This document shows positions 1,726-36,708 of a stretch of 64,000 nucleotides of DNA, piece by piece. Source of the DNA: a bacterium (GTDB lineage: Bacteria > Bdellovibrionota_C > UBA2361 > SZUA-149 > JAEUWB01); contig JAEUWB010000001.1 in assembly GCA_016786595.1 (NCBI GenBank), forward strand, positions 2,504-66,503, read 5' to 3'. Numbering within the stretch: position 1 is the first letter of the stretch; each line of letters opens with the position of its first letter. Both the position numbers and the translations under genes were made by a program. The notes under the pieces are model-generated. The model worked only from the letters and a program-made list of their open reading frames with translations. It had not been told where the DNA came from and ran no database searches.

Positions 1726-2592
1726 TTACTTACCCGCTTCGCGCTGTTCGTGCGCGTCCACAGTATTTGCTAATAAACATGCAATTGTCATTGGACCGAC
1801 TCCACCTGGAACTGGAGTAATCGCGCCTGCAATTTGCGAGACGCTATCGAAATCTACATCGCCACAAAGCCTACCTGAATCAAGCCGATTAATACCAACA
1901 TCAATCACAATCGCGCCAGGTTTAACCATTTCTGCTGTAATCAAATTCGGTCTTCCTGCTGCGGCAATAAGAATGTCAGCAGCTTTTGTATACGCAGTAA
2001 GATTTTTCGTCTGCGAGTGGCAAATTGTCACTGTTACCTGCTTTTCCAGTAAAAGTAGGTACATCGGTTTGCCGACTAGAATCGATCGACCAATAACAGT
2101 CGCCGACAAACCTGCAAGTTCCCGTGGTTGCTTGAGCAAGTCACGTCCAGCTTGAATTAAATCGATCACTCCTTGCGGCGTGCACGGACGCGGTCCTGGT
2201 GCCCCGCGTAGCAGCAAGCCTTGATTATAAGGGTGTAGGCCGTCTACGTCTTTACGCGGGTCAATCGCGCACAAGCAAGTAAATTCATCAACCTGCTTAG
2301 GGAGTGGAAGTTGCAACAAGATTCCATCAACAGTCGGGTCAGCAGAAAGCTTTTGTAGTGTTGCCACAACCGATTGCGTGTCAGCGTTTGCGGCGATCTT
2401 CAAGTCCATGACTTTTAGGCCGATTTCGTGTGCGGCTTTGGATTTCGCGCTAACATAAACTTGGGAGGCAGGATTATCGCCAACAAGTACAACTGCCAAA
2501 GTAGCGGGAGCTGAAAACGTTGCAACACGTTCGCTCAGTGATTTCTTGAGTTCTGCAGCTACTCTTTTTCCATCTATGATTAATGCGGGCAC
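1726..2592 (-). CDS. folD: Bifunctional methylene-THF dehydrogenase / methenyl-THF cyclohydrolase
   Basis: 288-aa ORF with FolD hallmarks: IIDGK, VVLVGDNPASQVYV, LQLPLP, DVDG, VIGRSILVGKP, PVPGGVGPMT. Confidence 0.95.
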   Translation of the reverse strand: MPALIIDGKRVAAELKKSLSERVATFSAPATLAVVLVGDNPASQVYVSAKSKAAHEIGLKVMDLKIAANADTQSVVATLQKLSADPTVDGILLQLPLPKQVDEFTCLCAIDPRKDVDGLHPYNQGLLLRGAPGPRPCTPQGVIDLIQAGRDLLKQPRELAGLSATVIGRSILVGKPMYLLLLEKQVTVTICHSQTKNLTAYTKAADILIAAAGRPNLITAEMVKPGAIVIDVGINRLDSGRLCGDVDFDSVSQIAGAITPVPGGVGPMTIACLLANTVDAHEQREAGK

Positions 2593-2743
2593 TTAAATTT
2601 CACCTGATAAACAATCTAAATAGAGACCTGTGATATATACTTGGATTTAAAAAAACGCCATCACCGGCTTTTCTTTAGAAATATCCTAGACATTTTGTTG
2701 TTTTTTTTGCGATACTAAATGAATTATAATTTGGAGTTGAATC

Positions 2744-3856
2744 ATGATTATTGGCATTCCCCGCGAAAGAAAAACTGACGAACGCCGCGTTGCACTAACC
2801 CCTGATGGCGCGCTTGAGCTCACACGTATGGGTCACTCGGTGATTATTGAGCAAGGTGCCGGTGTGCTCAGCGGGTTTACTGATGCTGCCTACACAGATT
2901 CGAATACTGAAGTTGTGCCATCGCTTGAGGAAGTTTGGTCGCGCTGCGATTTGCTTGTCAAAGTCAAGGAACCTGCGCCTGAAGAAGTCCAATATTTCCG
3001 CCGCGGTCTATCTGTATTTTCTTTTCTACATCTTGCTGTTGCTCCTGAGCTTACGCGCTCGATGGTTGAGTCTGGAGTAACTGGACTTGATTACGATCTA
3101 GTTATGCTTGATAACGGTCGTTTACCGATCTTAGAACCAATGAGCGTAATTGCTGGACAGCTTTCGATTCAATGTGGTGCTTATGCGCTGCAAGCTGGAA
3201 CAGGGGGACGTGGAATTCTTTTAGGTGGCGCAATTGGTGTACGTCCTGGGCGAGTTGTTGTGATTGGCGCTGGCGCAGCTGGAAGTAACGCTGCCCGAGT
3301 AGCGCTCGGCATGGGCGCAGAAGTTACGATTATTGATATTAATGAGGCTAAATTAACGCCATTTTTCGATAGTCCACGTAAGGTGCGGACAATTTACTCG
3401 ACTCCACTTTCAGTTGAGCGTGAAATCAAGGAGGCAGATATTGTGGTAGGTGCGGTGCTTTTACCGGGTGCACTTGCGCCAAAGCTGATTACTCGTCAGA
3501 TGATTTCCTCAATGCAGAAAGGTGCGGCAATTGTTGATATTTGCATTGACCAAGGTGGTATTGCTGAAACTAGTAAGCCGACAACAATTACTCATCCGAC
3601 ATACATCGAAAACGGCGTTGTACATTATTGCGTGACAAATATGCCGGCGCTTGTCCCTAGAACTTCGACGATTGCACTGACCAATGCGACCTTGCCGTGG
3701 ATTAAAATGATTGCTGAGAAGGGTGTGCAAGGTGCGTTGAGCACTTCTAAGCCACTACGTCGGGGGCTGACGAGCTATCAAGGTAAGCTGACAAATGGGC
3801 CAATTGCTGAAGCGGTGGGTATGAAGTTTACTCCGGCCGAAGAGATTGCGTTGTAG
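2744..3856 (+). CDS. ald: Alanine dehydrogenase
   Basis: 370-aa ORF with N-terminus MIIGIPRERKTDERRVALTP and Rossmann motif VVVIGAGAAGSNAA. Full-length similarity pattern to L-alanine dehydrogenases. Confidence 0.92.
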   Translation: MIIGIPRERKTDERRVALTPDGALELTRMGHSVIIEQGAGVLSGFTDAAYTDSNTEVVPSLEEVWSRCDLLVKVKEPAPEEVQYFRRGLSVFSFLHLAVAPELTRSMVESGVTGLDYDLVMLDNGRLPILEPMSVIAGQLSIQCGAYALQAGTGGRGILLGGAIGVRPGRVVVIGAGAAGSNAARVALGMGAEVTIIDINEAKLTPFFDSPRKVRTIYSTPLSVEREIKEADIVVGAVLLPGALAPKLITRQMISSMQKGAAIVDICIDQGGIAETSKPTTITHPTYIENGVVHYCVTNMPALVPRTSTIALTNATLPWIKMIAEKGVQGALSTSKPLRRGLTSYQGKLTNGPIAEAVGMKFTPAEEIAL

Positions 3857-3911
3857 AGGGCAGTATGCATTTCTGCTTAGGCTTAAAAAATTGAGTATTA
3901 CTGCTCTTAGA

Positions 3912-4033
3912 GCTTAGGCTTGAACTTATACTTCTCCTGCCCCTCCCTGAATACAAGTTATTCCGTCCTGAATAGAGTCCTCATCTAATTAGAAAAGGGA
4001 AGGATAAGGGTAAGCTTAAGTTCAAGTGCAAGC
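3912..4033. repeat. Family-1 intergenic palindromic element (GCTTAGGCTTGAAC...GTTCAAG..AAGC arms)
   Basis: Left arm 3912-3947 and right arm 3997-4033 are imperfectly complementary. The terminal motif CTTAGGCTTGAACTT is shared with copies at 11486, 30717, 35399, 43277, 49889 and 53500. Confidence 0.7.
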
Positions 4034-4155
4034 ATACGCTTAAAGAATTAACGTCGCCCACACCCGTGAAGCGGGTTCGTTTTCTTTGCCCATAGATTTC
4101 TTTTCCGTACAGTAATGAAATGATTTGTGCGCTTTCAGCACAAGGATCAAAAAAA

Positions 4156-4310
4156 GCAAAAAGAAAGCCTACCGCTTTCTTTTTGCTTACATGACCTAGT
4201 CCTTTCATGGACTAGGTCTAATTAACACTTCTTTCTCGCGCCCTGTGACTGGTCGTCCTCTCGGACGACATACAAAATTACAAAAAGAAAGCCTGCCGCT
4301 TTCTTTTTGC
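4156..4310. repeat. Family-2 hairpin modules
   Basis: GCAAAAAGAAAGC-CTACCG-CTTTCTTTTTGC at 4156-4186 and a near copy at 4281-4310. Perfect 10-bp hairpin GACCTAGTCC/GGACTAGGTC at 4193-4218. GTGACTGGTCGTCC-TCTC-GGACGAC at 4245-4269. About 85 bp is homologous to 50066-50155. Confidence 0.75.
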
Positions 4311-4344
4311 TTACTTTTTCTTTCTCGCGAAAGAAAAAGTAAGC
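4309..4344 (-). terminator. Stem-loop at the 3' end of minE (candidate terminator)
   Basis: Perfect 16-bp stem GCTTACTTTTTCTTTC / GAAAGAAAAAGTAAGC with a 4-nt loop, abutting the minE stop codon. There is no clean U-tract, so the terminator function is inferred. Confidence 0.5.
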
Positions 4345-4625
4345 TAAGCGACTTTTTGGACTTGGCGCGGTTTACAGATTACTGGGGTATTGATCAGTAG
4401 GGCTGTAGAGTTATTTTCGCGTTGCCATTCGATTTCGACATTTTTGCGTTCGAGTACGAAGTATTTAGAGATTACGTCGAGTAGGTCTTTTTTGAAGAAG
4501 TCCATGTCTTGTGGGCTCAGGCCGCTGCGATCTTGAACGAGAACCATTTGCAAGCGGTTTTTTGCGGTAGTTTTGCTATTGCTATTCGCTTTTGAGAAAA
4601 ACATTTCGGCAAGTCTGTTAAACAT
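4344..4625 (-). CDS. minE: Cell division topological specificity factor MinE
   Basis: 93-aa ORF with AKNRLQMVLVQDR and the typical MinE fold pattern. Immediately downstream of minD. Confidence 0.9.
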   Translation of the reverse strand: MFNRLAEMFFSKANSNSKTTAKNRLQMVLVQDRSGLSPQDMDFFKKDLLDVISKYFVLERKNVEIEWQRENNSTALLINTPVICKPRQVQKVA

Positions 4626-29324: not shown

Positions 29325-30701
29325 CTAGGCAGAATGAAAAACTTCTTGTTCAACAAGAGAGATTTTCTCGTGCCACTTGATTAGATTGACGACAAGAGAA
29401 TTAAGCTCTTCAATTCCTTGAATAATTTCCTGGTCAGCAGTTTGTTTGATAAAATCAAAATCAGATTCCAAGGCGTCTTTATCGATTTTTTTTGCCTCAA
29501 CCTTCTGAGCCACCTGCTGATAGGCATCTCGAAAAGGCATGCCCGACTGAACTAAGCGAAAAGCTTCATATGTCGCATAAAGCTCAGATGTCATTGCAGC
29601 CTGGAGTCGCTCTTGATTCAAGGTGAAACCTTTAACTAATAGCTCTGTCATCGCAAAAATATCAGCTAGCTCTTGCGCGCCTGCAACTAATGGTTCCTTA
29701 GAGTATTGCAGGTCACGATGATAATTTGAGGGAAGTTTAGCAATTACCCATTCAAGCTCTGTGGCCTTTGATCTAACACGTGAGGCCTTGCCACGTAGCA
29801 ACTCGGCCAAGTCAGGATTACGCTTTTGCGGCATAATCGAGGAACCTGTGGTGAGTTCTTTGGGTAATTTTATAAAACCGAATTCTTCAGAACAGTAAAG
29901 GACAAAATCCCAACCAAGTTTTTCATATAAACTGGCAATCCTGGCAGCAAATTGCAAGGCACGCAGCTCGTTGCGACCACGACTATTTTGTACATCAATC
30001 ACACTGCGCTGAGCAGCGTCAAAACCTAAAAGCCTTGCAACCATTTCTCGGTCAAGCGGCAAAGAGCTACCAAAGCCGGCGCCGGCACCAAGTGGATTGC
30101 GATTAAGAATTAAAATTAAGCCTAAACCTTCGCGAGCTAAATCGAGCGTGCCTTCAGCAAAAGCATGCATCCACATCGCAACACTTGAAGGCATCGCGCG
30201 CTGGAGATGCGTGTACCCAGGCATGGCGATATGCCCAAAGTGCTGGGCGCGACTAAAAAAGAGTGTCGATAAATCAAGTAGGTGCTTTGTCCAGCTCATC
30301 ACCAAATGCCGTGTGTAGAGTCTTGTCGCTAGTAAAATTTGGTCGTTTCTCGACCGCCCCGCATGAATGCGCTTACCAGTTTCTCCGTATTTTTCAGCAA
30401 GTTTACTTTCAATAACAGTATGAGCGTCTTCAAGTTCGACTGGGATCTGGAAATTCCCCTCTGCTGCAGTTTGCGCGATTTCCTTTAGCCCCGCTAAGAG
30501 CTTTACTAGTTCGTCTTTTTTGAGAATCCCGATTGATTCCAGCATTTTTGCGTGCGCGGCAGAGCCGATGCAATCAAAACGCGCGATTTGACAGTCAACT
30601 AGATAATCGGTGCCGACAGTTAGACGCAACATTAAGTCGTCAACTTGATAGCCTTTATTCCAGAGTGGGTTTGATTTGTTCATAGGTGGTTTATAATCCA
30701 T
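29325..30701 (-). CDS. argH: Argininosuccinate lyase
   Basis: Fumarate-lyase superfamily signature GSSIMPQKRNPD and full-length ArgH pattern. The start is uncertain (ATG at 30701 or 30683). The track ORF start at 30752 lies inside a palindromic repeat. Confidence 0.92.
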   Translation of the reverse strand: MDYKPPMNKSNPLWNKGYQVDDLMLRLTVGTDYLVDCQIARFDCIGSAAHAKMLESIGILKKDELVKLLAGLKEIAQTAAEGNFQIPVELEDAHTVIESKLAEKYGETGKRIHAGRSRNDQILLATRLYTRHLVMSWTKHLLDLSTLFFSRAQHFGHIAMPGYTHLQRAMPSSVAMWMHAFAEGTLDLAREGLGLILILNRNPLGAGAGFGSSLPLDREMVARLLGFDAAQRSVIDVQNSRGRNELRALQFAARIASLYEKLGWDFVLYCSEEFGFIKLPKELTTGSSIMPQKRNPDLAELLRGKASRVRSKATELEWVIAKLPSNYHRDLQYSKEPLVAGAQELADIFAMTELLVKGFTLNQERLQAAMTSELYATYEAFRLVQSGMPFRDAYQQVAQKVEAKKIDKDALESDFDFIKQTADQEIIQGIEELNSLVVNLIKWHEKISLVEQEVFHSA

Positions 30702-30716
30702 ACAATTCAGTCTTTT

Positions 30717-30798
30717 GCTTAGGCTCGAACTTATACTTCTTCTTATTTTCACCTTGAATTGAAAAAGATAAAGTATAAGGAGCAGTGCAAGCCTAAGC
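30717..30798. repeat. Family-1 palindromic element
   Basis: Arms GCTTAGGCTCGAACTTATACTTCT... (30717-30750) and ...AAGTATAAGGAGCAGTGCAAGCCTAAGC (30761-30798). Confidence 0.7.
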
Positions 30799-30875
30799 CC
30801 GAGATCCTAATATTTCGTCGTCGCGTAGTAATCGCTAGTTCAGTCTAGCTCAATAAAAAACTATAAAAACCAGCT

Positions 30876-30917
30876 TGCATAATTATGCGCATAAATGTAT
30901 AAATTATGCAATTATGC
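30876..30917. promoter_or_regulatory. Putative ArgR operator (tandem ARG-box-like palindromes)
   Basis: TGCATAATTATGCG (30876-30889), TGTATAAATTATGCA (30896-30910) and TGCAATTATGC (30907-30917). These resemble the ARG-box core TGAAT-AATT-ATTCA. They lie in the argH/argR divergent region and overlap the argR start. Confidence 0.55.
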
Positions 30918-31357
30918 TAGATGAACGCATTAAACGGCAGCGCGCTTTGGTTAAGATTCTTAAGTCAAAGCCTTATACTACGCAAGACGACGTAGCGTCT
31001 GCCCTTGAGTCTGAGGGTTTTGAAGTCACCCAGTCAAGTATAAGTCGGGACTTTCGTGAGCTTGGAGTCGTTAAAGTTGGCGGTAGATACACCTCAACTT
31101 TACGATTTACTGGTGATGCAAATAGCGCAGCGCTCCAGGGGCTCATAAAAAATATTGATCCAGCAGGTGGAAATCTGCTTGTCGTAAAAACAACTCCCGG
31201 CGCTGCAAATGTTGTCGCCGCAAGACTTGATGAGAAAGACCTAAACGAAGTGGTCGGTACAATTGCCGGTGATGATACAATTTTCGTAGCCACTAAAACC
31301 AAACGCGGCCAGGCGCATGTGATCCAAGCCTTAGAAAAGCTCGATCGCATTTTTTAA
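30914..31357 (+). CDS. argR: Arginine repressor
   Basis: 147 aa from the ATG at 30914 (MLDERIKRQRAL...). It has an N-terminal winged-helix (TQDDVASALESEGFEVTQSSISRD) and a C-terminal GTIAGDDTIFV oligomerisation/arginine-binding motif. The track's TTG start at 30875 is rejected. Confidence 0.9.
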   Translation: MLDERIKRQRALVKILKSKPYTTQDDVASALESEGFEVTQSSISRDFRELGVVKVGGRYTSTLRFTGDANSAALQGLIKNIDPAGGNLLVVKTTPGAANVVAARLDEKDLNEVVGTIAGDDTIFVATKTKRGQAHVIQALEKLDRIF

Positions 31358-31376: not shown

Positions 31377-32432
31377 ATGAGAATTATTGCTGATAAAATT
31401 GCTTCTGTTACTAAAAACGTTGCGTTGACACGTGAATTGCGGCTTGCCTCAGAAATCCTAGCAGTCGAAGGTCAAATCATCGCCGGACGCTTGCACGGAC
31501 AGAAAAGCGTCTACAATCAAGTTGAAAACTGCCAAGGCCGGATGGTCACCCTACAAGAAGGAGATATTCTAGTTGGCGCACTTGGTCATCGCAATGCACT
31601 GCATGGATATTCAGGAGTCGTGCCCGACTCGGTCAAAGTAGGCGACAGACTGAATGTCTTAAACTTAGGCGGCGTGATCGGGCAATGCACTTCAATTAAC
31701 CCAGAATACGGCAAGCCCTTTGAATTTGAAGTTTTAGGATCGGTTTTAATCTTCCCAGATTTCCAAAGCCGCCAAGGTATTCCTGCACAAACCAGCATGA
31801 ATGCTCTACCCCAAGTCACAAGCCTGGCGAGTTATCCTAAAACACCTTTAGTTTTTGTCGCCGGAACTTGCATGCAGGCGGGAAAAACTTTTGCCACCTG
31901 TCAAATCATTCGTGCCCTTTCCAGTGCAGGACTAAAAGTCGGAGCCTGCAAAGTTACAGGCGTTTCATTGATGCGTGATACGCTCAACATGCTCGACTAC
32001 GGCGCTGATGCGATTCAATCTTTTATGGACGCAGGCGTTGTCACAACCGACGAGAAGACTTCGCTTCCAGCAGCTCTGGCTGTAATCGGCTCGCTGTCTG
32101 AAAAAGGTCTAGACGCGATCGTGGTCGAGCTTGGCGATGGAATTTTAGGCCAGTACGGTGTGCAAGGAATTCTCGGTAGTCAAGAGCTGATTAACCGTGT
32201 TGCCGCCCTGATCATGTGCGCAAATGACCCCGTCGCTGCCTGGGGTGCGGCAGCAATTATGAACGATACTTACAAGCGCAAAATCGATCTCTTTAGCGGC
32301 CCGACAACGGATAATGCAGCCGGCACAGGCTATATCGAAAAGGAATTAGGTATCCCTGCCATTAACGCGCGCAATAACGGTAAGGAATTGGGAGAATTTA
32401 TTTTGAATTTAGTTAAAAACCATGGCTGCTAA
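31377..32432 (+). CDS. Uncharacterised P-loop (GTxxxxGKT) protein encoded inside the arg operon
   Basis: 351-aa ORF with an N-terminal ~150-aa domain, then VFVAGTCMQAGKTFATCQIIRAL (Walker-A-like, BioD/CobQ/DUF1611-style). It lies 19 nt after argR, and its stop overlaps the argC start by 11 nt. Confidence 0.6.
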   Translation: MRIIADKIASVTKNVALTRELRLASEILAVEGQIIAGRLHGQKSVYNQVENCQGRMVTLQEGDILVGALGHRNALHGYSGVVPDSVKVGDRLNVLNLGGVIGQCTSINPEYGKPFEFEVLGSVLIFPDFQSRQGIPAQTSMNALPQVTSLASYPKTPLVFVAGTCMQAGKTFATCQIIRALSSAGLKVGACKVTGVSLMRDTLNMLDYGADAIQSFMDAGVVTTDEKTSLPAALAVIGSLSEKGLDAIVVELGDGILGQYGVQGILGSQELINRVAALIMCANDPVAAWGAAAIMNDTYKRKIDLFSGPTTDNAAGTGYIEKELGIPAINARNNGKELGEFILNLVKNHGC

Positions 32433-33486
32433 TCATCAAGAAAAAATCGGCATAGCAATTTTAGGAGTTACTGGATTCGGTGGCGGTGAGTTTTTACGCC
32501 TAATCACTCAGCACCCTAACGCTCAAGTCGTTTCCGTCCACACCACTTCTAACCCAGGGAAAGCAATTGACGAGGTGCACCCCCATTTAAAGGGTTTTTA
32601 TAACCTCAAGCTGGAAGAGGATTTTAACGCCGATAAATTAGCTAATTTTAAACATAAAATAATAATTTCAGCCTTGCCACATGGCCCTTCAGGCAAAGCT
32701 ATCGAAGGGCTGCATCGACTAGTCGCAAAGCAGGGTATAAAAGTTATTGATCTCTCTGGCGATTTACGGCTCAAAGACGAGACGCTGCATCGACAATATT
32801 ATCCACACTCTGAGGCCTTGACGACGCTTCGCAAAGAAGCAGTTTTCGGGCTGACTGAAATTCACTGTGAGCAAATTAAAGCGGCAACGCTTCTTTCCAA
32901 TCCAGGCTGCCTTGCCACTGCAAGCATTTTAGCTTTAGCACCGCTAAGCAAAACTTTAGGGTCGGAGTTAATAGCTGTCGCAGTCGATGCAAAAACGGGA
33001 TCATCTGGGGCCGGGAAAACTCTTTCTGAAACAACCCATCACCCGCAACGGCACGACAATTTTTCATACTATAAGGCTTTTGATCATCAGCACGAGCCAG
33101 AGATTGTAGAAAATATTAAGCTCTCAGTAGACACTTCGTTTAGTTTCCTCGCGCAAAGACTGCCAATTGCACGCGGCATTTTTGTCACTGCTCATGCTGA
33201 GTTAAAGCACGCCGTAGAAAAAACTAAAATCGTCAATGCTTTTCAAGAATTTTACGCTACTGCACCGTTTGTAAGAATCCGTAACTCTTCCCCGGAAATT
33301 CAAAACGTTGTCGGATCAAATTTTTGTGACCTTGCAATTGAAGTCCGCGGCAAACAGCTTTTAATCGCCGTAGCAATTGATAATTTAGTTAAAGGCATGG
33401 TCGGACAGGCAATTCAGAATATGAATTTGATGTGTGGACTAGATCAAACAACCGGGCTTTGGACTCCAGCCCTTAATTTAAGTTAA
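32422..33486 (+). CDS. argC: N-acetyl-gamma-glutamyl-phosphate reductase
   Basis: 354-aa ORF with GVTGFGGGEFLRL NAD motif, active-site SNPGCLATA, and a C-terminal DNLVKGMVGQAIQNMN. Confidence 0.92.
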   Translation: MAANHQEKIGIAILGVTGFGGGEFLRLITQHPNAQVVSVHTTSNPGKAIDEVHPHLKGFYNLKLEEDFNADKLANFKHKIIISALPHGPSGKAIEGLHRLVAKQGIKVIDLSGDLRLKDETLHRQYYPHSEALTTLRKEAVFGLTEIHCEQIKAATLLSNPGCLATASILALAPLSKTLGSELIAVAVDAKTGSSGAGKTLSETTHHPQRHDNFSYYKAFDHQHEPEIVENIKLSVDTSFSFLAQRLPIARGIFVTAHAELKHAVEKTKIVNAFQEFYATAPFVRIRNSSPEIQNVVGSNFCDLAIEVRGKQLLIAVAIDNLVKGMVGQAIQNMNLMCGLDQTTGLWTPALNLS

Positions 33487-33493
33487 AGGCGCG

Positions 33494-34492
33494 ATGCAAA
33501 ACTGGATTAGCTTTAAAGATCACTCCGCTAACGCACTGCAAGCCTTAGTCGCACGTGCCATAGAAATCAAGGCGGGGTCAGAGGTTGATTCCCTGCGTGG
33601 AAAAATCTTAGGCATGATGTTTTTCAATAGTTCGCTGCGCACTCGCTCTTCCTTTGAAGCCTTGATGTTTCGCCATGGTGGCCACGCCATGACACTTACT
33701 CCTGGACAAGATACTTGGAACTTTGAGCATCGCGAAGGAATTCTCATGGACGCTGATAAAGCAGAGCATCTCAAAGAAGCAGTCCGAGTATTAAGCCGCT
33801 ATGTTGATGCACTGGGTGTGAGGAGTTTCGCCAAATTAGAAAGCTTAGTTGATGACCTGAGTGAGCCTGTCATTTCAGCGTTCTGTATGTATAGCGAAAA
33901 GCCTATAGTTAATCTCGAGTCTGCAGCAGAACACCCCTGCCAAGCGCTTGCCGATATGCAAACCTTAGCGGAGAAATTTAAAAATACAGGTGGACCCAAG
34001 GGCAAGAAATTCGTCTTAAGATGGCTGCCACATTTACGTGGACTACCCATGGCTGTTCCCCACTCTGCCCTACTAGCTGCAGCAAATCATGGCATGGACA
34101 TCACAATTGTCGCTCCGCAAGGTTATGAGCTGGCAGCTGACTATCTGGCTCTGGCTAACCAGCGTGTGGAGCAAACTGGAGGTTCGCTTTCGGTGAGTAA
34201 TGATAAATCCCAAACTCTCCAAGCTGATGTTGTCTACGGAAAAAGCTGGGGGGCCTCAATTTTCTACGGCAAACCCGACGATCAGAAGCTCTCACTAGCA
34301 GAACACCGCTCCTGGAGGCTCGAGCTTGGAGATCTCAATCCGCAAACGCTTTTTATGCATTGCCTACCGCTTAGAAGAAATCTAAAAGTCACGGATGCGG
34401 TAATTGATTCGAAAAATTCAATTATTATTGATCAGGCAGAAAATCGCTATTGGGCGCAAACTGCTATTATGGAGGCAATTTTTAAGCAATGA
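33494..34492 (+). CDS. argF': N-acyl-L-ornithine carbamoyltransferase (AOTCase/SOTCase type, not classical OTCase)
   Basis: 332-aa ORF. SLRTRSSFE carbamoyl-phosphate motif, HPCQALAD, YGKSWGA in place of the OTCase SMG loop, and HCLPLRRNLKVTDAV...DQAENR. Resembles Xanthomonas-type N-acetylornithine transcarbamylase along the whole length (comparison from memory). Confidence 0.85.
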   Translation: MQNWISFKDHSANALQALVARAIEIKAGSEVDSLRGKILGMMFFNSSLRTRSSFEALMFRHGGHAMTLTPGQDTWNFEHREGILMDADKAEHLKEAVRVLSRYVDALGVRSFAKLESLVDDLSEPVISAFCMYSEKPIVNLESAAEHPCQALADMQTLAEKFKNTGGPKGKKFVLRWLPHLRGLPMAVPHSALLAAANHGMDITIVAPQGYELAADYLALANQRVEQTGGSLSVSNDKSQTLQADVVYGKSWGASIFYGKPDDQKLSLAEHRSWRLELGDLNPQTLFMHCLPLRRNLKVTDAVIDSKNSIIIDQAENRYWAQTAIMEAIFKQ

Positions 34493-35382
34493 CGCCATTA
34501 ATTAGAAAAGACTTAAGTGCATTATCAACAGCGATTCCTTACATCAAAGCATTTAAGGGCAAAACATTTGTTGTTAAAATGGGCGGCGACCTTTGTGAGT
34601 CAGAGCGCGCAATTCATGATATCATCGAGCAGATCACCTTGCTGCAGCAGCTTGGAATTAACGTCGTGCTTGTTCACGGCGGTGGCAAACATTCTACTAA
34701 GCTTGCAGAGTCGCTCGGTATCAAGACAGAATTTGTCAACGGGCGGCGGATTACTTCAAGTGTGGCACTAGAAGTCTTAAAAATGTCCTTCTTAGGGACG
34801 CTGAACACGAACATTCTTCTTACAGCACGTAAGATTGGCTTAAGTGCAGTAGGCTTAAGTGGGATTGATGCAGACTTAATTGTCGCGCATCGTCGCGGAC
34901 CAGTTAGTGTCAAAACCGATCAAGGCACAGAAACTGTTGATTTCGGACATGTTGGCGAGATTGATAGCGTTAATACGACATTGCTTAAGAATTTAATTAG
35001 TGACGGTCTTGTTCCGGTGATTGCCTCCTTGGGAGCGACTCGAGAAGGCGAAGCATTAAATATTAACGCTGATACAATTGCTGCCTATATTGCTGTAGCA
35101 CTTGGTGCAGAGAAGTTAATCTATACTACTACAGTCGATGGGGTTTTTGACGACATTAATAACCCGGCAACATTACATTCTGTCTTGACCCAAAAAGAAA
35201 TTGAATCAATGCGCAGCAAGGGATTAATCAGCGAAGGTATGTTACCAAAGCTTGAGACGGCGCTCTGGGCGCTGGAGCGTGGCGTAAATCGTGTGCACAT
35301 TGTCAGCGGGTTTTCGGAAGACAGTATTTTACACGAAGCTTTCACGAATGAAGGCGCAGGGACGATGATTACGAAGGAGTAA
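34489..35382 (+). CDS. argB: Acetylglutamate kinase
   Basis: 297-aa ORF with FVVKMGG, VLVHGGG and NINADT motifs. The 4-nt overlap with argF' indicates translational coupling. Confidence 0.93.
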   Translation: MTPLIRKDLSALSTAIPYIKAFKGKTFVVKMGGDLCESERAIHDIIEQITLLQQLGINVVLVHGGGKHSTKLAESLGIKTEFVNGRRITSSVALEVLKMSFLGTLNTNILLTARKIGLSAVGLSGIDADLIVAHRRGPVSVKTDQGTETVDFGHVGEIDSVNTTLLKNLISDGLVPVIASLGATREGEALNINADTIAAYIAVALGAEKLIYTTTVDGVFDDINNPATLHSVLTQKEIESMRSKGLISEGMLPKLETALWALERGVNRVHIVSGFSEDSILHEAFTNEGAGTMITKE

Positions 35383-35508: not shown

Positions 35509-36708
35509 ATGACAACAGAACAAATTATCCAACTCAACGACACTTATCATGTCAATAACGCCCGTCGTTCAAAAATAGTTTTTTCGCATGGTGAAGGTTC
35601 TTATTTATATGACCTAACTGGGAAGAAATATCTCGACCTTTTGGCGGGCATTGCCGTAAACACTCTGGGCTATGATCACCCTGAATACACAGCCCGCGTC
35701 ACTGATCAATTCAAAAAACTAAGCCACATCTCCAATTTCTTTTATACTGAAGCGCTTGCGCTACTGGCTAAAAAACTCGCCAAAATCACAGGTCTCAATC
35801 GATCTTTTTTCTGTAACTCTGGTGCCGAGGCCAACGAAGCCGCATTTAAATTTGCCCGTAAATGGGGCAAAGAAACCAAGGGCGAAAACTGCTTTAGAAT
35901 TGGAAGTTTTAAAAAAGGCTTTCATGGCAGGACCTTTGGCGCGCTTTCGGCAACACATAAAAAAGCCTATCAAGATGCTTTTGCTCCGCTTGTCCCTGGT
36001 TTTTTTGAACTTGACCCGCATGATAGTGCGAGGATGGACCAAGAACTAGATGCTAGTGTTTGTGCAGTAATTGTCGAGCCGGTGCAAGGTGAATCGGGCA
36101 TTCATCCTCTCCCTGACCAATGCCTGCAAGGACTGCGTAAGCTTTGCACTGAAAGAAAGATTCTTTTGATCGTTGATGAAATTCAATCTGGGATTGGGCG
36201 CACTGGGAAGTGGTTTGGCTTTCAGCATTCAGGAATTAAACCTGATTTAATCACCATGGCAAAAGGTCTTGCTGGTGGAGTGCCAATCGGAGCCTGCACC
36301 ATGAGCGAGGATGTCGCCGCGCATATTCAACCTGGTGACCATGGATCCACTTTCGGTGGTAACGCCTTGGCTTGTGCGGCTGGAGTTGCAACGCTTGAGA
36401 TTATCGAAAAAAGTAACTTAATCGAGAACGCGCGAGTAACCGGTGATTACTTAGCTGCAGAGTTAGAAAAAATTCAGGCCGAGCTTAATATTTTTAGTGA
36501 AATCAGGCATCGCGGGTTAATGCTTGGGGCCGACATGAGGAAACCTAAAGCCAAAGAGATTTTCGCACAGGCGCTTGAAGCTGGAGTTGTTTTAAATGCT
36601 GCTAGTGAGCGTACTTTGCGTTTTGTGCCGCCTTTAATTTTAACTAAAGCTGGCGTTGATGAAGCAATTGCCAAATTAAGACCTTTGTTTGCAGGGCTTA
36701 CAAATTAG
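35509..36708 (+). CDS. argD: Acetylornithine (or succinylornithine) aminotransferase
   Basis: 399-aa ORF of the class III PLP aminotransferase pattern: FCNSGAEANEAA, DEIQSGIGRTGK, TMAKGLAGG (PLP lysine). Confidence 0.92.
   Translation: MTTEQIIQLNDTYHVNNARRSKIVFSHGEGSYLYDLTGKKYLDLLAGIAVNTLGYDHPEYTARVTDQFKKLSHISNFFYTEALALLAKKLAKITGLNRSFFCNSGAEANEAAFKFARKWGKETKGENCFRIGSFKKGFHGRTFGALSATHKKAYQDAFAPLVPGFFELDPHDSARMDQELDASVCAVIVEPVQGESGIHPLPDQCLQGLRKLCTERKILLIVDEIQSGIGRTGKWFGFQHSGIKPDLITMAKGLAGGVPIGACTMSEDVAAHIQPGDHGSTFGGNALACAAGVATLEIIEKSNLIENARVTGDYLAAELEKIQAELNIFSEIRHRGLMLGADMRKPKAKEIFAQALEAGVVLNAASERTLRFVPPLILTKAGVDEAIAKLRPLFAGLTN

Follow-up and report, generated by a model that had tools for sequence, protein, structure and literature searches.

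A BioD-like P-loop protein of bacterial arginine operons is a candidate N-succinylglutamate synthase

Which enzyme acylates glutamate in a bacterium whose arginine locus encodes an N-acylglutamate kinase, an N-acylornithine aminotransferase and an N-acylornithine carbamoyltransferase, but where no argA, argJ or argE has been found? The question is raised by a 64,000-nucleotide stretch of DNA (the window) from a member of the Bdellovibrionota_C (assembly GCA_016786595.1, contig JAEUWB010000001.1), in which an uncharacterised open reading frame (ORF) at positions 31377–32432 lies between argR and argC. The original prediction, made from the DNA letters alone, was that a non-orthologous enzyme encoded by this ORF supplies the missing first or last acyl step of the pathway. 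That reading is supported here, with refinements: the first step is favoured over the last, the acyl group is probably succinyl rather than acetyl, and the protein falls outside DUF1611, to which it is only distantly similar. We consider it quite likely that the ORF product carries out the first step, taking CoA- and ATP-type chemistries together. The more specific proposal, that it is an N-succinyl-L-glutamate synthase acting as a CoA-dependent transferase in place of ArgA, ArgJ or GNAT-type synthases, we put at about an even chance.

The case for an arginine enzyme comes from the genomic neighbourhood of the family. A genome scan yielded a non-redundant set of 82 loci that spans Armatimonadota, Bdellovibrionota, Planctomycetota, Myxococcota, Acidobacteriota, Elusimicrobiota and Gammaproteobacteria, and the arginine genes around each were mapped. 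argC lay directly downstream of the ORF in 73 of the 74 loci with enough downstream sequence, and an arginine gene lay directly upstream in 77 of 78 (argG in 66, argR in 8 and argB in 3). The two reading frames are often closely packed: in 59 of 76 loci, argC is projected to start no later than the stop codon of the ORF. The 82 loci contained argG (71), argB (68), argF' (66), argR (62), argH (59), a gene for an M20 deacylase (48) and argD (44). Members of the family that were only 29–42% identical were still flanked by argG, a carbamoyltransferase gene or argC. This linkage is far beyond chance, recurring as it does in 82 independent loci, and the association with arginine and argF' operons on which the original prediction had hinged is conserved. 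Since the operons collectively encode the other steps of the pathway, often including the deacylase, and the ORF is the only conserved gene in them left without an assignment, glutamate N-acylation is the reaction that would fall to it. A non-orthologous enzyme for a missing acyl step is thus supported by linkage and by a published prediction described below. Of the two acyl steps first offered, the initial one is favoured, and the deacylation is disfavoured by the M20 genes.

One locus of a divergent member contains a gene fusion. In L088 (positions 2526–4418) a 630-residue protein fuses ArgB (AA_kinase) to an M20 peptidase (Peptidase_M20 and M20_dimer). The operon reads argD, ornithine carbamoyltransferase gene, argB::M20, argG, ORF, argC, and its ORF homologue is 31% identical to the window protein.

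The idea that this family performs the first step is already in the literature as a prediction, and so is not new. In GapMind 2026 (bioRxiv 10.1101/2024.10.14.618325, Appendix 2), the protein ACG33_RS14135 of Steroidobacter is put forward, as a prediction only, as an alternative N-succinylglutamate synthase. According to the same source, its homologues almost always occur in arginine operons with argB, argC, argD, argF', argG, argH and argR, and sometimes argE, and the family never co-occurs with homologues of ArgA. The neighbouring ArgF' proteins carry A, P, S or V at position 92 in 90% of cases, or 97% when I and T are included, with two Gln (bioRxiv 10.1101/2024.10.14.618325). ACG33_RS14135 also gave a remote Foldseek match to DgcN (PDB 7XRJ; E 1.4e-7, with 5.6 angstroms of root-mean-square deviation; bioRxiv 10.1101/2024.10.14.618325). 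The family studied here has the same operon setting, the same lack of Glu92 in ArgF' and gammaproteobacterial operons without argE, and no difference between the two families is known. Its fold also matches a DUF1611 structure (2OBN), but BioD and HypB match equally well. New here are the quantified linkage across phyla, the weakness of the DgcN analogy, and an N-terminal domain without a solved structural relative.

Which acyl group does the pathway use? The window ArgF' has Ala90 (codon 33761–33763) where the Xanthomonas enzyme has Glu92. Its best matches in the PDB were the Xanthomonas N-acetylornithine carbamoyltransferase chains 3L02, 3L05, 3L06 and 3L04, which we take to be Glu92 mutants, and all of these ranked above 3KZC, presumably the wild type. 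In the three alignments displayed to position-92 variant chains, the residues equivalent to Ala90 were Ala, Ser and Val. The 66 ArgF' proteins encoded next to family members had A (47), P (8), T (4), S (3), V (2), Q (1) or G (1) at this position, and none had Glu; A, P, S or V accounted for 60 of the 66 (91%), rising to 97% when T was added. Replacing Glu92 with A, P, S or V is reported to turn the Xanthomonas enzyme to N-succinylornithine (Shi et al. 2007, as quoted in bioRxiv 10.1101/2024.10.14.618325). Because ArgF' has Ala90 in the window and never Glu in the 66 neighbours, the pathway probably runs on succinyl intermediates. Judged by this residue, the window ArgF' is probably an N-succinylornithine carbamoyltransferase, and its NCBIfam name, "N-acetylornithine carbamoyltransferase", would misstate the acyl group. 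A separate observation concerns a locus from a Bdellovibrionales metagenome-assembled genome (MAG; L018:5203–6536), where a weak ArgF' match (27% identity) has Gly at the position-92 equivalent and a second argR-like gene stands between argF' and argB.

We propose that the pathway would run as follows. The ORF product would N-succinylate L-glutamate, ArgB, ArgC and ArgD would carry N-succinylglutamate on to N-succinylornithine, and ArgF' would carbamoylate N-succinylornithine, after which a desuccinylase encoded elsewhere in the genome would release citrulline. Within the ORF product, the phosphate groups of the acyl donor would be held by the BioD-like P-loop domain at the C-terminus; by analogy with DgcN, this donor is most likely succinyl-CoA. 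The basic, conserved N-terminal beta-domain would supply the glutamate site. Expression of the ORF would be coupled to that of argC, and ArgR would probably repress it by way of the palindromes at 30875–30917.

What kind of protein, then, does the ORF encode? Its main features are as follows (the scores are those of the models described below).

31377–32432, forward strand: the ORF, from ATG 31377 to TAA 32430–32432, 351 residues
31377–31826, forward strand: N-terminal all-beta domain, residues 1 to about 150, from conservation and from AlphaFold2 models with predicted local distance difference test scores (pLDDT) of 91.6 and 87.3
31863–31889, forward strand: Walker A P-loop GTCMQAGKT, residues 163–171, invariant in 83 homologues
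31950–31952, forward strand: Lys192, aligned to Lys37 of Escherichia coli BioD (phmmer, 1DTS/1A82) and invariant in divergent members
32127–32141, forward strand: Walker B-like ELGDG, residues 251–255, with E251 invariant in divergent members

A Walker A motif, AGTCMQAGKT, had been placed near residue 165 behind an N-terminal domain of about 150 residues, and it is indeed found at residues 162–171. The ELGDG motif is comparable to the EGAGG motif of BioD. G169, K170, K192 and E251 do not vary even in members only 24–57% identical, and the phosphate-binding residues K170, T171, K192 and E251 are all invariant across the homologues. In the N-terminal domain, K7, K43, R55, R72, N96, C104, S106 and R132 are invariant in the 83 homologues. 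Cys104, Ser106, Cys165 and Cys281 are invariant in the core family, and the cysteines are not conserved in divergent members.

The family is large. Clustering at 90% identity gives more than 6,500 clusters, and an exhaustive profile search returned 1,721 representatives of clusters at 50% identity. It is carried by at least 598 GTDB species genomes, and proteins 55–63% identical to the window protein are found across phyla. Stigmatella aurantiaca, Corallococcus coralloides (NZ_CP172866.1) and Geothrix are examples of cultured bacteria that have it. Almost all are named hypothetical; a few myxobacterial members are named "DUF1611 domain-containing" by NCBI or "D-glutamate N-acetyltransferase-like C-terminal domain" in UniRef.

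Database matches to the protein itself centre on the P-loop. The only Pfam match was to DUF1611_C (PF07755), which scored 17.9 bits where the cutoff is 25 and spanned 45 residues (155–199) at the P-loop; residues 1–150 had no Pfam match. The only NCBIfam match was to BioD (TIGR00347), at 16.7 bits against a cutoff of 83.3. Neither Pfam nor NCBIfam detected a GNAT, ArgJ or amino-acid-kinase domain in the ORF, and Pfam detected no Peptidase_M20. Searches of PDB sequences, whether started from the protein itself or from two profiles of the family, matched only the P-loops of BioD, FtsY and MobB; neither 7XRJ nor 2OBN was matched. Weak Pfam matches in 64 divergent members were to MobB (26), CbiA (25), DUF1611 (16; E ≤ 0.01) and the BioD-like AAA_26 (6).

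Membership of DUF1611 was ruled out by the sub-threshold score, the restriction of the likeness to the P-loop and the different N-terminal domain. Membership of the BioD, CobQ or MobB families was likewise ruled out, as the matches are weak and restricted to the P-loop. The family forms a distinct lineage of BioD-like SIMIBI proteins that has an N-terminal domain of its own, and is not a bona fide DUF1611 protein.

The predicted structure agrees with this placement. An AlphaFold2 model built from 21 homologues (pLDDT 91.6, predicted template modelling score (pTM) 0.89) begins with an N-terminal domain that is all-beta (residues 1 to about 125), followed by a linker and an alpha/beta P-loop domain (residues 158–351). 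When the full model was compared with the PDB using Foldseek, the best matches were BioD (3OF5, E 1.7e-6), HypB (1.9e-6) and the DUF1611 structure 2OBN (2.0e-6), followed by FtsY/SRP54 and MeaB. Alignments to 2OBN were the longest in the search (246–269 columns), the template modelling (TM) scores of the matches, including 2OBN, were about 0.4, and DgcN (7XRJ) was not among the top 50 PDB matches. The ORF shows the traits of a BioD-like SIMIBI P-loop protein: besides the fold, it has a GTxxxxGKT Walker A motif, a lysine equivalent to Lys37 of BioD and an acidic Walker B motif. The N-terminal domain modelled alone gave a pLDDT of 87.3 and a pTM of 0.82, and had no significant fold match in the PDB (best Foldseek E 0.69, TM-score ≤0.27). 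Going by these models, the domain may represent a fold for which no structure has been solved.

How does the protein compare with known enzymes? DgcN is a D-glutamate N-acetyltransferase (EC 2.3.1.312) of the DUF1611 family (PF07755 and PF17396; PDB 7XRJ, with 2OBN as a related structure), so the statement in the original prediction that a DUF1611 member N-acetylates glutamate was essentially right. Both proteins have two domains, with the BioD-like P-loop domain at the C-terminus, and DgcN N-acylates the alpha-amino group of glutamate, a reaction also predicted for the ORF. There are differences. The ORF scores below the PF07755 cutoff, over a short match, and its N-terminal domain is modelled as all-beta without a PDB match, whereas DUF1611_N is described by Pfam as Rossmann-like. 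Furthermore, DgcN acts on D-glutamate with an acetyl group in a catabolic role, whereas the ORF is predicted to act on L-glutamate with a succinyl group in biosynthesis. The strong link that DUF1611 membership would have provided therefore falls away, leaving a remote resemblance in the P-loop fold. Similarly, the BioD/CobQ/DUF1611-like layout first suggested for the protein stands, by fold, for the P-loop half and not for the N-terminal domain.

In both structure and PDB sequence, the P-loop domain is matched best by the BioD-like SIMIBI clade, which includes CobB/CobQ and the N-terminal domain of Pta. BioD and the ORF have in common the GTxxxxGKT P-loop, the lysine at Lys37/Lys192 and an E-x-G-x-G Walker B motif. 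They differ in that the ORF falls far short of the TIGR00347 cutoff, has an additional N-terminal beta-domain of about 150 residues, and is found in an arginine context, as opposed to the biotin context of BioD. ArgA (an amino-acid kinase domain with a GNAT domain), ArgJ and the GNAT-type N-succinylglutamate synthase of Bacteroidota, whose gene is also in an arginine operon near argR, have the reaction and pathway position that are predicted for the ORF. They have no sequence or fold relationship to it, so the ORF would be a non-orthologous replacement.

The likeness to BioD raises the question of whether the enzyme uses an acyl-CoA at all. It could instead be an ATP-dependent succinate–L-glutamate ligase, in which ATP makes succinyl phosphate and the alpha-amino group of glutamate attacks it to give N-succinylglutamate, ADP and phosphate. 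A ligase of this kind, with a BioD-type P-loop and a beta-domain of unseen fold, would start arginine synthesis and, without a desuccinylase, might also recycle succinyl. BioD and CobB/CobQ, and more distantly PyrG, PurA and FTHFS, are ATP- or GTP-dependent enzymes that form C–N bonds via an acyl-phosphate, which counts for such a ligase, as do the ranking of BioD (3OF5) as the best structural match and the PDB sequence matches to it. Its motifs point the same way, from the GTxxxxGKT P-loop and the Lys37 equivalent to the resemblance of ELGDG to EGAGG, and K170, K192 and E251, which persist even at 24–57% identity, belong to the set that an ATP-dependent BioD/CobQ-type ligase needs. However, a conserved P-loop is equally expected for binding the phosphates of CoA, so these residues do not distinguish the two chemistries. 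The known first-step enzymes of arginine synthesis all use acyl-CoA or transacylation, and DgcN, the only characterised P-loop enzyme that N-acylates an amino acid, uses acetyl-CoA. We regard the ligase as possible, if rather unlikely.

The fold is also compatible with a non-catalytic role. HypB, MeaB and FtsY are among the top fold matches, and the gene invariably adjoins argC, often overlapping it, as might be expected of an accessory NTPase, such as a SIMIBI/G3E-type metallochaperone or a factor that helps to assemble or regulate ArgC or the M20 enzyme. Yet the 64 divergent members gave no Pfam match to G3E families except for a single weak one to cobW, many of the operons have no M20 enzyme, and the first step would still be without a gene in hundreds of genomes. 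The N-terminal domain of about 150 residues, highly conserved and rich in invariant Arg and Lys, better fits a site for a small-molecule substrate. An accessory role is improbable.

A synthase that performs the same step with acetyl in place of succinyl, that is, an N-acetylglutamate synthase, would suit the NCBIfam name of the adjoining carbamoyltransferase and the acetyltransferase activity of DgcN. It is distinctly improbable given the ArgF' specificity residue, which is Ala here and Glu in 0 of 66 neighbours, and given the switch to succinylornithine that A, P, S or V at position 92 brings about in the Xanthomonas enzyme (Shi et al. 2007, as quoted in bioRxiv 10.1101/2024.10.14.618325).

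An N-acylcitrulline deacylase replacing ArgE, or an ArgJ-like transacylase moving succinyl from N-succinylcitrulline to glutamate, might be suspected from an M20 gene found neither in the window nor in the gammaproteobacterial operons of our sample, from Steroidobacter, which also has no ArgE (bioRxiv 10.1101/2024.10.14.618325), and from the possible nucleophiles Cys104, Ser106, Cys165 and Cys281 of the core family, but is very improbable, as an M20 deacylase is encoded alongside the ORF in 48 of 82 loci (and fused to ArgB in L088), no amidohydrolase is known to be built on a P-loop NTPase fold, the cysteines vary among divergent members and the first step would stay without a gene. Deacylation as the main role was rejected because of the M20 gene in the same operons.

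Several points weigh against the assignment of the ORF product as the synthase of the first step. The acyltransferase analogy with DgcN is weak: BioD, HypB and FtsY match equally well, 7XRJ lies outside the top 50 and the N-terminal domains differ. We are confident that the window family and the GapMind family are the same, an equation made by matching properties and not by direct alignment; the Steroidobacter protein was neither among the best 80 genome loci nor among the top 120 matches of a gammaproteobacterial query. Our literature search, which covered DUF1611, DgcN, D-glutamate N-acetyltransferase and N-succinylglutamate synthase, turned up no experiments on this family. The window operon contains neither a deacylase gene nor argG, whereas related loci have argG in 71 and M20 in 48 of 82 cases. 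Homologues of ArgA and ArgJ were absent from the 27 window ORFs scanned against Pfam, a result that covers those ORFs only. Finally, at L087:119–3061, on a short contig with no adjoining arginine genes, a family member (P0400, 28% identity) is divergent from genes for two CoA-transferase subunits (PF01144). P0400 may be a paralogue with another function, or may hint at a link to acyl-CoA or succinate.

If the ORF product does acylate glutamate, the missing first step of arginine synthesis would be filled in at least 598 species genomes, among them members of Planctomycetota, Myxococcota, Acidobacteriota, Bdellovibrionota, Armatimonadota, Elusimicrobiota and several Gammaproteobacteria, and automated calls of auxotrophy for these carrier groups would be corrected. 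The succinyl variant of the pathway would be widespread well beyond Bacteroidota. Glutamate N-acylation would have been solved in a third way, unrelated to ArgA/GNAT and to ArgJ, by combining a P-loop NTPase fold with an N-terminal domain of a new kind. The choice of acyl donor and the N-terminal fold, for which no match was found, could still bring a mechanistic surprise.

The remaining features of the arginine locus in the window are these.

29325–30752, reverse strand: argH (argininosuccinate lyase; TIGR00838, 301 bits; Lyase_1), divergent from the operon
30875–30917, no strand assigned: ARG-box-like operator between argH and argR, found by repeat search; tandem palindromes GCATAATTATGC; AATTATGC three times, with 21-nucleotide spacing
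30914–31357, forward strand: argR (Arg_repressor and Arg_repressor_C domains), likely true start ATG 30914 (MLDERIK...)
32422–33486, forward strand: argC (TIGR01850, 339 bits), start overlapping the ORF by 11 nucleotides
33494–34492, forward strand: argF' (N-acylornithine carbamoyltransferase, predicted to be succinyl-specific; NF003384, 383 bits against a cutoff of 288)
34489–35382, forward strand: argB (N-acylglutamate kinase; TIGR00761, 217 bits)
35509–36708, forward strand: argD (N-acylornithine aminotransferase; TIGR00707, 465 bits)

Pfam and NCBIfam thus confirmed the operon order argR-ORF-argC-argF'-argB-argD with argH divergent, as it had been read from the letters, and the window carbamoyltransferase scored below the cutoffs of the NCBIfam models for ordinary ornithine carbamoyltransferases. 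The ORF listing and the raw sequence likewise agreed with the initial description of a 351-residue ORF that begins 19 nucleotides after argR and overlaps argC by 11. The 19-nucleotide gap between the argR stop (which ends at 31357) and the ORF ATG contains an AGGA ribosome-binding motif, and the last 11 nucleotides of the ORF are shared with the start of argC (ATG 32422). The start codon of the ORF is right, because homologues align from residue 1.

Neither argG nor an M20 deacylase gene was matched by tblastn anywhere in the 64 kb (queries: ArgG and an operon M20 deacylase). No GNAT, ArgJ or M20 match was found in 20 further window ORFs of suitable size, with mid-sized ORFs only partly scanned. 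To this extent, the initial observation that the window contains no argA, argJ or argE holds.

The palindromes at 30875–30917 are presumably an ArgR binding site, given their likeness to known ARG boxes. The real ArgR start is probably ATG 30914 and not TTG 30875, because the TTG start puts the palindromes inside the gene; the Pfam alignment of ArgR opens at residue 18 of the long (TTG 30875) version. The order argH (reverse strand), argR, ORF, argC, argF', argB is the same in the window and in a locus from a Bdellovibrionales MAG (L005).

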